From Chitinophagales bacterium (lineage in GTDB: Bacteria; Bacteroidota; Bacteroidia; Chitinophagales; JADJOU01): a stretch of DNA of 64,000 bases. The notes beneath the pieces were generated by a model. It did no database searches. It worked only from the letters and a program-made list of their open reading frames with translations, and was not told where the DNA came from. This document shows positions 37,101 through 61,394 of this stretch, piece after piece. Positions within the stretch are counted from its first letter, which is position 1. Every line of letters begins with the position of its first letter. The stretch spans positions 100,408 to 164,407 of the forward strand of contig JAEUUY010000021.1 in the NCBI GenBank assembly GCA_016787225.1, read 5' to 3'. A program made the translations under genes and the position numbers.

Positions 37101-37145
37101 AATGCCGACCTTGAAAAGTCGGCATTCTGGGTGGGCGCTGAGGGA
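37099..37145. repeat. 47-bp direct repeat (hairpin plus tRNA-Val 3' end), left copy
   Basis: AAAATGCCGACCTTGAAAAGTCGGCATTCTGGGTGGGCGCTGAGGGA matches 37474..37520 at 45/47 positions. Confidence 0.8.
37101..37126 (-). terminator. hairpin AATGCCGAC/GTCGGCATT (T-run on the minus strand)
   Basis: It has a 9-bp stem. On the minus strand it is followed by TTTTAGCTTTT. It abuts the DUF3820 stop on the plus strand, so it may work in both directions. Confidence 0.5.
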
Positions 37146-37220
37146 TGCTGACGAAGCTTTGCTTGTCAGCATGCTGCACTCCCGATAATTATCGGGACGT
37201 CAGCATTCGAACTCAAGACC
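37132..37220 (-). pseudogene. tRNA-Val-like 3' remnant (T-arm plus acceptor 3' strand) interrupted by a 60-bp insert
   Basis: With 37145-37204 removed, the plus strand reads TGGGCGCTGAGGG|ATTCGAAC..GACC. This aligns with the intact tRNA at 37507-37535. Confidence 0.55.
37145..37204. repeat. 60-bp palindromic mini-element, copy 1 (inserted in the T-loop of the tRNA remnant)
   Basis: ATGCTGACG...CGTCAGC(AT) forms 7-9-bp terminal inverted repeats. Inside are a hairpin ATGCTGAC/GTCAGCAT and an 18-nt perfect palindrome TCCCGATAATTATCGGGA. It matches 37625..37684 at 56/60 positions. Confidence 0.75.
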
Positions 37221-37467
37221 TATCACAATATTTCGCAATAAAAATTTGGAGTCGTTCTCTAGATAAATTCTTTAATTTTTTCTCTAAAACAACTGCTTCT
37301 GCTCTTGTTGGTTTAGTAATAAATCCAACAAGAATCCAAGGAATATATTTGGATGTATAGTTTTCTAAGCCATTATTGTGCCTTTCAATTCTTGCTTTGA
37401 CATCATTGGTCTGACCAATATAATATTTGTCGTGCTTTTCTGAATAAAGAATATAAACGTAATACAT
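37213..37467 (-). CDS. small GIY-YIG nuclease-family protein (UPF0213/COG2827 type)
   Basis: 84 aa. MYYVYILYSEKHDKYYIGQTNDVKARIERHN contains the GIY...YIG motifs and the conserved R and N. Confidence 0.85.
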   Translation of the reverse strand: MYYVYILYSEKHDKYYIGQTNDVKARIERHNNGLENYTSKYIPWILVGFITKPTRAEAVVLEKKLKNLSRERLQIFIAKYCDRS

Positions 37468-37473
37468 AAATAA

Positions 37474-37520
37474 AAAATGCCGACCTTAAAAAGTCGGCAT
37501 TCTCGGTGGGCGCTGAGGGA
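37474..37520. repeat. 47-bp direct repeat (hairpin plus tRNA-Val 3' end), right copy
   Basis: It is the partner of 37099..37145. Confidence 0.8.
37476..37501 (-). terminator. intrinsic terminator after tRNA-Val
   Basis: On the minus strand AATGCCGAC-ttttttaag-GTCGGCATT is followed by TTTTATTT. Confidence 0.65.
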
Positions 37521-37581
37521 TTCGAACCCCCGACCCCCTCGGTGTAAACGAGATGCTCTGAACCAGCTGAGCTAAGCACCC
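37507..37581 (-). tRNA. tRNA-Val (anticodon TAC)
   Basis: A hand-folded cloverleaf works. The acceptor is GGGTGCT/AGCGCCC, the D-arm GCTC-AGCTGGTTCA-GAGC, and the anticodon arm TCTCG-TTTACAC-CGAGG. The variable loop is GGGTC and the T-arm GGGGG-TTCGAAT-CCCTC. The discriminator is A and no CCA is encoded. Confidence 0.9.
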
Positions 37582-37601
37582 TTTTTTTGTGCATCAAAGT
37601 T

Positions 37602-37708
37602 CTTCGTGTAAACGAGTTGCTCTGATGCTGACGAAACTTTGCTTTTCAGCATGCCGCACTCCCGATAATTATCGGGACGTCGGCAACCAGCTTTGAAGCT
37701 AAGCACCC
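37602..37708 (-). pseudogene. tRNA-Val-like 5' half (acceptor 5' strand, D-arm, anticodon arm) interrupted by a 60-bp insert
   Basis: The minus strand reads GGGTGCTTAGCT(tcaa)AGCTGGTT|insert|CAGAGCAACTCGTTTACACGAAG. This aligns with the first ~43 nt of the intact tRNA, including the TAC anticodon loop. No T-arm follows. Confidence 0.6.
37625..37684. repeat. 60-bp palindromic mini-element, copy 2 (inserted in the D-loop of the tRNA remnant)
   Basis: It matches copy 1 at 56/60 positions in the same orientation, 480 bp away. Confidence 0.75.
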
Positions 37709-37799
37709 TTTGAATTCGTTCGACCTTCGGACAAAGTCCGTAGCCTTTTTCAAAAGCGAGTGCAAATATAAAGATATTTTATAAATGCACAAGACTTTT

Positions 37800-59271: not shown

Positions 59272-59435
59272 CGTTGAACCCGAATCTTGCAGTTCAAAGT
59301 TATTGAACTGCAGACCGACGAAGAAAATCTAAACATCTAAGTAGTATGATATGGAAGATTTTCTTGTTGGGGTTAACCCTGACATCCTGACGAGTATCTG
59401 TCAGGATCGTCAGCCCTCCGGGCAGATTTTGCATT

Positions 59436-60935: not shown

Positions 60936-61394
60936 ATGAAAGTACTGATGGTCTGTTTAGGAAATATATGTAGATCTCCATTAGCAGAGGGAATTTTGAA
61001 GCATAAATTAGATCAGCGAAATATCGAAGCCTTCGTAGATAGTGCGGGTACAGGTGGATATCATATAGGTAGTCTTCCAGATCAACGTTCGATAGATATT
61101 GCAGAAAAATATGGTATAAATATTTCTGATCAGCGAGCCAGAAAAATCAGAAGTGTAGATTTTGAAGAATTTGATCTTATTTTTGCTATGGATACCTATA
61201 ACTATCAAGATTTGCGAGCTATGGCTAAAGAGGCTGAACTAGGAAAAATTAAAATGATTCTCAATGAGTCTAACCAAAGGAAAAATATGAGTGTTCCTGA
61301 TCCATATTATGGTGGTCAAGATGGTTTCGAAAATGTATTTCAAATGCTAGACTTAGCATGTGAAAATATCGTTAATAATTACTTCAAAAAATAA
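60936..61394 (+). CDS. low-molecular-weight protein-tyrosine phosphatase
   Basis: MKVLMVCLGNICRSPLAEG contains the CX5R(S) P-loop and DPYYG the Asp loop. The real start is ATG 60936, and the ORF track's 60840 overlaps rluB. Confidence 0.88.
   Translation: MKVLMVCLGNICRSPLAEGILKHKLDQRNIEAFVDSAGTGGYHIGSLPDQRSIDIAEKYGINISDQRARKIRSVDFEEFDLIFAMDTYNYQDLRAMAKEAELGKIKMILNESNQRKNMSVPDPYYGGQDGFENVFQMLDLACENIVNNYFKK

Follow-up and report, generated by a model that had tools for sequence, protein, structure and literature searches.

Double-hairpin inserts in tRNA-Val remnants beside a minimal GIY-YIG nuclease gene of a Chitinophagales bacterium

Bacteria very commonly encode stand-alone GIY-YIG proteins of the UPF0213/Slx1 type, on whose function there is no agreement. 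In fungal mitochondria, Paquin, Laforest and Lang reportedly described mobile endonuclease open reading frames (ORFs) that duplicate the 3' end of the gene they invade, together with double-hairpin elements (DHEs) in Allomyces and other mitochondrial DNAs. Phage T4 encodes SegB, a free-standing GIY-YIG homing endonuclease, in its tRNA gene cluster (PMC2330249), and a 2006 survey of the superfamily grouped the minimal prokaryotic GIY-YIG proteins with Slx1 and mentioned no link to tRNA genes or hairpins (PMC1564403). Here we analyse 64,000 nucleotides of a Chitinophagales bacterium (GenBank assembly GCA_016787225.1, contig JAEUUY010000021.1, positions 100,408 to 164,407), the extent over which the source genome was readable and hereafter the window. 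In this window, two nearly identical 60-nt inserts interrupt two remnants of a tRNA-Val gene that bracket an intact tRNA-Val and a small GIY-YIG gene. We favour, with a probability of about 55%, the view that the inserts are double-hairpin modules of a widespread selfish tRNA-gene cassette whose core is a stand-alone UPF0213/Slx1-like GIY-YIG nuclease of minimal size (about 80-90 aa).

Each of the known systems shares part of the logic of this cassette, and none shares all of it. In the mitochondrial case, an endonuclease ORF likewise brings a replacement gene end while the old end is kept as a pseudo-copy, and short two-hairpin elements occur in the same genomes next to such insertions. Yet the likeness is one of description only: genomes, sequences and targets differ (protein-coding genes there, tRNA genes here), and placement in cloverleaf loops is specific to the present case when compared with mitochondrial DHEs. 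Integrative elements that use tyrosine integrases at tRNA 3' ends also restore the gene from element-borne sequence and leave a direct repeat of the tRNA 3' end, but here there is no integrase, the unit is only about 375 bp long, the remnants are interrupted by hairpins, and a mirror form exists on the 5' side. Repetitive extragenic palindromes (REPs, REPINs) and their REP-associated tyrosine transposases (RAYTs) offer another parallel, with short intergenic palindromes that are dispersed, have covarying stems and concentrate around a small nuclease gene. However, the RAYTs, as HUH/Y1 enzymes, both cleave and rejoin single-stranded DNA whereas ours is a GIY-YIG protein, the copy density in the window is low, and a link to tRNA-gene remnants is no characteristic of REPs. 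As with SegB (PMC2330249), a GIY-YIG gene lies among or beside tRNA genes, spreads with flanking DNA and has low, read-through-dependent expression. SegB differs in being larger, with DNA-binding parts and a phage host, whereas the present protein is a predicted 84-aa catalytic core encoded on a bacterial chromosome, and here the target gene is partly duplicated and its remnant carries hairpin modules. Finally, the protein shares domain, size and conserved residues with the prokaryotic stand-alone Slx1-like proteins (UPF0213; 1zg2, 1ywl; PMC1564403).

The inserts form one direct-repeat family. A repeat search returned 37144-37205 and 37624-37685 (62 nt, 94% identical, spacing 480), which fits the two 60-nt copies of the original prediction (37145-37204 and 37625-37684, identical at 56 of 60 positions); no further copy of the 60-mer was found in the 64 kb. 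Read against the intact tRNA-Val(TAC), copy 1 lies in the T-loop of the 3' remnant and copy 2 in the D-loop of the 5' remnant, as had been proposed, and colinearity with the intact gene returns once exactly 60 nt are removed at both sites: deletion of 37145-37204 joins ...GAGGG to ATTCGAAC in the T-loop, and deletion of 37625-37684 joins GCTCTG to AACCAGC in the D-loop. A dinucleotide ambiguity at one junction had been taken as compatible with a 2-bp target duplication. The ambiguity is AT at copy 1 and A alone at copy 2, and a 2-bp duplication is therefore unsupported. In tRNA sense, the locus runs from the 5' remnant (37708-37606, with its insert at 37684-37625) through a 24-nt spacer, the intact tRNA, a terminator-like hairpin, the ORF, the other insert (37204-37145) and the 3' tail to a second terminator-like hairpin (Table 1). 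We read it as a complete 3'-side cassette (intact tRNA, terminator, ORF, T-loop module and 3' tail) next to an ORF-less 5'-side relic (5' remnant with D-loop module, and the spacer).

The inverted-repeat ends and internal hairpins claimed for the inserts are real, each copy being made of two adjacent hairpins, one of which holds an 18-nt palindrome. The terminal inverted repeats of copy 1 (ATGCTGACG...CGTCAGCAT) arise because both hairpins use one stem family. The palindrome, TCCCGATAATTATCGGGA, has exact matches at 37180-37197 and 37660-37677 and no third in the 64 kb (0.01 expected), and the first hairpin, ATGCTGACG..GTCAGCAT, is present in the window at the two inserts only (0 expected). 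Folded as single-stranded DNA, copy 1 reaches -20.2 kcal/mol (z -7.4) on one strand and -19.8 kcal/mol (z -7.1) on the other, and copy 2 reaches -16.2 and -15.6 kcal/mol (z -5.2); none of 200 shuffled controls attained the native energy. Two of the four differences between the copies make up a compensatory change, T-A to C-G, in the GCYGAC...GCRGC stem. A look-alike reported elsewhere in the window, at 59384-59407, proved to be a genuine nested hairpin with a stem of this type (CTGAC[ATCCTGAC..GTCAGGAT]CGTCAG), and neither a tRNA nor a GIY-YIG gene was found beside it.

The ORF of the cassette matches Pfam PF01541 (E 2.8e-14, residues 1-71 covered), and the nearest solved structures are the UPF0213 proteins 1zg2 (E 9e-7) and 1ywl. 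Its GIY-YIG domain spans nearly the whole 84-aa protein, a minimal variant with no additional domain, and the conserved Tyr, Tyr-x-Gly, Arg, His and Glu of the stand-alone Slx1/UPF0213-like group are all present. Residues Y5, Y16, G18, R26, H30, E62 and K66 are kept in 98-100% of 91 aligned relatives, so the nuclease core is under selection. The product is a predicted structure-selective, Slx1-like nuclease. Its gene is expressed by read-through from the tRNA only, with a terminator in between, and its TGA stop codon immediately adjoins GTTCGAAT. The exact protein was found at this locus only, on 6 contigs, and exact-protein matches accordingly give no evidence of a recent jump of the gene. 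Within the ORF, on the + strand and thus antisense, 37397-37424 matches the sigma-70 consensus at 12 of 12 positions (TTGACA, 16 nt, TATAAT) over the YYIGQTNDVK codons. Bacteroidota promoters are of another type than TTGACA/TATAAT, and the match may be a by-product of conserved coding sequence.

The association of such nuclease genes with tRNA genes extends far beyond this locus. A profile scan over one genome per species returned 184 stretches with close GIY-YIG relatives, from which 80 loci were taken; detection used a hidden Markov model built from this nuclease family, which may miss distant members. Among the 59 loci having at least 300 nt on each side, an intact tRNA on the same strand lies within 200 nt in 55, upstream in 46 and downstream in 11, on both sides at two. 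These tRNAs carry 16 ARAGORN labels and represent at least 14 distinct amino-acid identities. In most loci a perfect repeat of the final 14 nt of the intact tRNA lies shortly after the ORF, and 35 of the 39 downstream tRNA 3' remnants contain a perfect non-tRNA hairpin of at least 6 bp, which alignment of the intact tRNA to the downstream region places in the T-loop, the D-loop or the anticodon arm. The suspected link between the inserts and the neighbouring GIY-YIG gene thus holds, a like hairpin being found in most tRNA remnants beside its relatives. The family of hairpin modules is tightly linked, at cloverleaf loop positions, to tRNA-gene remnants made by a mobile GIY-YIG cassette.

The architecture comes in three layouts. 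In the window and its closest relatives (layout A), the tRNA is followed by a terminator, the ORF, a T-stem mimic, one or two T-loop hairpins and the 3' tail. In layout B, the ORF precedes a nearly complete pseudo-tRNA whose anticodon stem is replaced by CCCGA/TCGGG, sometimes with an added T-loop hairpin. Layout C is the mirror image: a 5' remnant bearing D-loop or anticodon-arm hairpins precedes the ORF, and the intact tRNA comes last, behind a duplicated promoter. Loci L035, L041, L053, L061 and L063 have such mirrored 5' remnants with hairpins in the D-loop. Loci of the candidate phyla radiation (CPR) share this architecture but differ in their hairpins, which are GCGCCCWAGGCGC plus ACCCGCCTYGGGCGGG. 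Some cassettes form tandem arrays with a 375-bp period, such as the six units after tRNA-Lys in L037 (1936-4237) and the four units before tRNA-Pro in L041 (748-2325), where the ORF runs into the tRNA 5' part and ends in the D-loop. The 5' structure of the window has an exact structural parallel at a Maribacter tRNA-Asn (L262), a locus without an ORF that carries two D-loop hairpins, one of them identical to a window hairpin at 28 of 28 positions. Certain pseudo-tRNAs lying 3' of GIY-YIG ORFs are called by ARAGORN as tRNA-Cys and tRNA-Ser (L050 2227-2303 and L055 2235-2315), one of them at the Rfam threshold (32.5 bits), and are a likely source of tRNA mis-annotation.

Close relatives of the tRNA-Val locus reveal how its parts change. 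The nucleotide identity of the cassette ORF is 97% to L001 and 92% to L002, while that of the flanking genes is only 77-85%; the cassette is thus younger than the DNA around it, which indicates recent transfer. A cassette less diverged than its flanks (92-97% versus 77-85%) and sporadically distributed, over at least 14 tRNA identities and in tandem arrays, has the marks of a homing cassette. L002 lacks the 5' remnant and has an extra, older 3' remnant, without ORF and with a different T-loop hairpin. Modules evolve in two ways, through the exchange of units and through compensatory changes: in the window, L001, L002 and L330/L331, different pairings of four hairpin units make up the T-loop and D-loop modules, and one of these units occurs in both orientations, while another shows a compensatory change from GAC/GTC to GAT/ATC. 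The terminator stem ATGCCGAC/GTCGGCAT (37101-37126 and 37476-37501) is the same as one module hairpin in L001, L002 and L330, and the cassette terminator may itself belong to the family. In L001 the T-loop and D-loop modules are unlike each other, whereas those of the window are nearly the same. The near-identity of the window copies is therefore better explained by a local event, and would most simply reflect conversion or replacement of one module by the other; the idea of two independent insertions of one element is not supported by this comparison.

As a unit, defined by the junction of its two hairpins, the 60-mer was found in public contigs only at the same tRNA-Val locus of relatives. 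An exact 26-mer had no match in public genome contigs because the pattern was too strict, L002 differing by one base. A metagenome scan for the junction gave 5 matches, of which three were chance occurrences in unrelated coding DNA and two were further relatives of the same locus. One metagenome contig of run X5 joins window position 37652 back to 37178, that is the D-loop module to the T-loop module, with ACTG between; it may represent a tandem copy, an excised circle or a strain variant, and an assembly artefact at the repeat is also possible.

The stems of the hairpins look like DNA. Summed over all hairpin inserts, the folding energies of the two strands are nearly equal (-584.9 vs -584.8 kcal/mol), and the stems are almost purely Watson-Crick, with 13 and 24 G-U pairs in total. 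In the hairpin abutting the T-loop, Watson-Crick pairing holds for 146 of 160 stem cells, compensatory double changes affect four positions of the stem, and the GA/TC pairs next to the loop are invariant in all 20 hairpins; hairpins of the CCCGAT type have the GAY...RTC top in common with them. Hairpins are also often nested in the loops of other hairpins, as for the 18-mer in the first hairpin of the window modules and at L005, L015 and L026. The pattern agrees with selection on a DNA structure whose top is sequence-specific, and an RNA fold fits it poorly. A covariance search of the window modules against Rfam gave chance-level matches only (E 0.5-0.9), and for the hairpins of 20 loci no Rfam family was found, the matches being to tRNAs only. 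A hammerhead or other ribozyme, suggested by the CUGANGA-like CTGACGA, was rejected, the required GAAA and stem layout being absent along with any Rfam match. So was a palindromic repair scar copied from flanking sequence, the stems being unrelated to the adjacent tRNA sequence.

The 18-mer palindrome has a life of its own. We scanned for the patterns TCCCGAT-N2-5-ATCGGGA and ATGCTGAC-N4-14-GTCAGCAT, and all counts from these scans are samples among the matches listed. The former was found in at least 120 stretches, mostly from Bacteroidota, with 140 occurrences. Sixteen of these lie within 500 nt of a tRNA and 14 within 400 nt of a GIY-YIG ORF, the latter being a strong enrichment by our own rough, uncalibrated estimate. 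Exactly TCCCGATAGCTATCGGGA accounts for 38 of the 140, and 34 of these 38 are outside long ORFs. It recurs in unrelated intergenic sites of many Bacteroidota orders (L083-L202, for example L087 at 198 and 2060, L125 at 3112 and 4825, L139 at 1178 and L090 at 4247), sometimes at the tip of a longer hairpin and sometimes flanked on both sides by direct repeats of 11-13 nt. We found no explanation for it in Rfam or in the literature searched. Flanking direct repeats of the target-duplication kind accompany 4 of the 140 copies, and 9 of the 140 palindromes extend outwards by at least 5 bp. The exact 18-mer of the window also occurs in another genome, as a terminator-like hairpin (L202).

The second scan gave mostly chance-like matches from many phyla, and the Bacteroidota matches are double-hairpin modules, several of them beside T-loop remnants or GIY-YIG ORFs and some orphan, away from tRNA genes (L215, L222, L235 and L255). 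Within the window, hairpins with the core of this pattern number 7 against 0.5 expected and are confined to the tRNA locus, except for the family orphan at 59384 and an unrelated hairpin at 61124. Other repeats were noticed too. Near a contig end, L193 (2233-2497) has five copies of TCCCGATAGGTATCGGGA, a member of the 18-mer family (one with GGGT), at a spacing of 61-62 nt, an array that may be either a tandem repeat or akin to clustered regularly interspaced short palindromic repeats (CRISPR). The sequence tgcaATGCTGACGGTACTGTCAGCATtgcataat is identical on two contigs of one Cytophagales genome (L212 1053 and L275 3712), has its loop inverted in L294 (3575), and may be the end of another repeated element.

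How, then, should the inserts be classified? The original prediction had considered a very small miniature inverted-repeat transposable element (MITE) or a REP-like element that prefers tRNA-loop DNA. Terminal inverted repeats are present as in a MITE, but there is no fixed-length target duplication (none at all at the D-loop copy), and many dispersed whole copies, which a classical MITE should have, were found neither in the 64 kb of this genome nor in public contigs, where the unit sits at the same locus only. The REP-like half of the proposal stands in part. Units are swapped between related loci, the identical hairpin of the Maribacter tRNA-Asn lies at another tRNA gene, and the 18-mer family is, among the matches listed, dispersed between genes across Bacteroidota as REPs are. 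The 60-mer as a unit does not follow suit, having been found at this tRNA-Val locus only, and the associated gene encodes a GIY-YIG protein, not an HUH/Y1 (RAYT) transposase. An integrative element targeting tRNA genes should have a tyrosine or serine integrase at a duplicated tRNA end, and the unit has only the GIY-YIG ORF and short overlapping ORFs. We found no paper that connects GIY-YIG genes with tRNA remnants and hairpins, nor any that contains the 18-mer core, in a literature coverage that was incomplete; novelty is thus provisional.

The architecture, its generality, the structural conservation of the stems, the shuffling of units and the youth of the cassette relative to its flanks are all observed, and together suggest how a selfish cassette might work. 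It would enter a tRNA gene carrying its own replacement for the part that it displaces: the 3' part of the tRNA and a terminator in one layout, a promoter and the 5' part in the mirror layout. The tRNA would stay intact as a result of this cassette-borne part, and the displaced resident piece would be left as a remnant, almost always with one or two perfect hairpins at cloverleaf loop positions. Since loops are meaningful only in folded nucleic acid, and the stems are DNA-like, extruded or single-stranded DNA is probably the substrate of whatever process puts the hairpins in place or retains them, and the hairpins themselves may act as DNA in such a state rather than as RNA. Such action would probably suit a structure-selective Slx1-like nuclease, whose sites of action on stem-loop DNA the hairpins may mark. 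Interruption could spoil the remnant both as a target and as a homologous partner of the intact gene, which would guard the cassette against deletion between direct repeats and so stabilise it.

Several observations weigh against this scenario. The intact tRNA beside the ORF has unbroken loops, and if loops are the target the allele with the cassette is not immune. At several loci (L035 and the pseudo-tRNAs), hairpins lie off the junction between cassette and remnant, and the anticodon stem of the pseudo-tRNAs is substituted, not interrupted; a model of insertion at the cut site predicts neither. No allele of the tRNA-Val locus without the cassette was found, all four relatives carrying it. 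Many comparison loci come from metagenome-assembled genomes. Lastly, for 119 of the 140 listed members of the 18-mer family no GIY-YIG gene or tRNA lies nearby, and the hairpins therefore exist independently of cassettes too.

This last point leads to the most serious competitor, in which the hairpins are tiny non-autonomous palindromic elements, akin to REP/RAYT systems, that are moved in trans, with the GIY-YIG nuclease as a possible agent, and land in single-stranded loops of stem-loop DNA of any kind, the tRNA remnants being simply the nearest harmless loop-rich targets. We regard it as possible yet clearly less probable than a selfish cassette. It accounts better for the orphan modules and for the nesting of hairpins in hairpin loops (to which 59378-59413 and the outwardly extended palindromes of the scan belong), and it is at ease with the dispersed and largely intergenic copies of TCCCGATAGCTATCGGGA, with the identical 28-nt hairpin in a Maribacter remnant without nearby ORF, with the shuffling of units among close relatives and with the uncalibrated enrichment of the palindrome near GIY-YIG ORFs. 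It must contend, however, with target duplications that are inconsistent (4 of 140 among the matches listed), with a single family orphan in 64 kb of this genome, and with matches to the second-hairpin pattern outside Bacteroidota that look like chance among those listed. Its insertion chemistry is missing, as we know of no GIY-YIG enzyme that rejoins DNA, and taken alone it leaves the partial tRNA duplications unexplained. It is nevertheless compatible with a selfish cassette, and the two may be halves of the same story. One way of joining them, to which we give only tentative credence, is that the loops of stem-loop DNA in an extruded or single-stranded state, tRNA cloverleaf arms as well as palindromes, are what a minimal Slx1-like GIY-YIG nuclease recognises; the enzyme would thereby drive its own copy-in with partial gene duplication, and also the spread of palindromes of 16-30 nt into hairpin loops, including the Bacteroidota-wide TCCCGAT-N4-ATCGGGA.

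Could the hairpins instead work in the transcript, stabilising or processing the nuclease mRNA or forming a tRNA-like untranslated region that controls expression? We consider this weak. It would make sense of an ORF read only through from the tRNA past a terminator, of a stop codon that falls within the CTGAC stem in many loci, of the compensatory changes in the stems and of metatranscriptome contigs that span both modules, though these contigs are strandless and may include DNA. Yet G-U pairs are nearly absent and both strands are equally stable, the hairpins lie 5' or 3' of the ORF and also in ORF-less relics, the same palindromes occur in unrelated intergenic DNA, and Rfam offers no match. 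Still less credible is that the 60-mers belong to a single duplicated block, or arose by chance, without wider meaning, a reading that the comparative data contradict and to which we give hardly any weight. Local copying is suggested by the much better match of the T-loop and D-loop modules in the window than in L001, and the 48-nt block of terminator and tRNA tail is duplicated as well. However, what lies between the copies does not belong to a single repeat unit, the copies lie in different tRNA loops, the same architecture recurs at dozens of unrelated loci in several phyla, and the expectation for the palindrome plus first hairpin is about 0. A selfish cassette with double-hairpin modules thus remains the reading that we prefer.

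The features of the locus are collected in Table 1. The spacer upstream of the intact tRNA is possibly the leftover of a deleted upstream cassette. The consensus of the Bacteroidota -7 promoter box is TAnnTTTG, and the box at 37763-37770 is likely the native tRNA promoter, similar boxes lying directly upstream of tRNAs at other loci.

Table 1. Features of the tRNA-Val locus and of the orphan hairpin, in window positions
Feature	Position	Strand	Basis
Outer terminator-like hairpin AATGCCGAC..GTCGGCATT, past the 3' remnant; near-duplicate of the inner terminator	37101..37126	-	repeat search
3' remnant of tRNA-Val: T-stem 3' strand and acceptor 3' strand (CCCTCAGCGCCCACC), same as intact gene	37130..37144	-	repeat search and reading
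Double-hairpin module in T-loop; in tRNA sense GCTGACG[TCCCGATAATTATCGGGA]GTGCAGC-AT-GCTGACAAGCAAAGCTTCGTCAGC-AT	37145..37204	-	repeats, fold
18-nt perfect palindrome in loop of first hairpin, copy 1; TCCCGAT-loop-ATCGGGA family (second copy 37660-37677)	37180..37197	.	
T-loop and T-stem 5' mimic (GGTCTTGAGTTCGAAT), overlapping final codons and TGA stop of GIY-YIG ORF	37205..37220	-	repeat search; equivalent in L003
GIY-YIG nuclease ORF, 84 aa, stand-alone UPF0213/Slx1-like domain	37213..37467	-	Pfam, PDB match, alignment
Inner intrinsic-terminator-like hairpin, between ORF and intact tRNA	37473..37504	-	
Intact tRNA-Val, anticodon TAC; sole tRNA in window	37505..37581	-	Rfam tRNA, 64.3 bits
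24-nt spacer, 5' remnant to intact tRNA	37582..37605	-	like layout in L001, L330/L331, L262
5' remnant, distal: D-stem 3' strand, anticodon-stem 5' strand, anticodon loop (CAGAGCAACTCGTTTACAC)	37606..37624	-	repeat search
Double-hairpin module in D-loop of 5' remnant	37625..37684	-	repeats, fold
5' remnant, proximal: acceptor 5' strand, D-stem and D-loop start; 3 bases more than intact gene	37685..37708	-	repeat search
Promoter-like box TATATTTG upstream of 5' remnant	37763..37770	-	fits TAnnTTTG
Orphan nested hairpin of the same CTGAC/GTCAG stem family, CTGAC[ATCCTGACGAGTATCTGTCAGGAT]CGTCAG, between 1051-aa helicase-like ORF and riboflavin-synthase-like ORF	59378..59413	.	z -4.9

The link to tRNA genes, remnants and hairpins gives the UPF0213/Slx1-type proteins a possible role as selfish invaders of tRNA genes. 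It would add a bacterial chromosomal case to the organellar pattern of an endonuclease ORF accompanied by a duplicated gene end, and it accounts for a class of tRNA-gene fragments and unusual pseudo-tRNAs by which annotation is misled. An exact 18-mer palindrome common to several Bacteroidota orders is unexplained in its own right. Placement that is specific to loops implies recognition of folded DNA, which is relevant to structure-selective nucleases in general. If loops of stem-loop DNA are indeed what the nuclease recognises, the system would be a GIY-YIG counterpart of REP/RAYT, and thus a new class of bacterial mobile elements that target structure rather than sequence.

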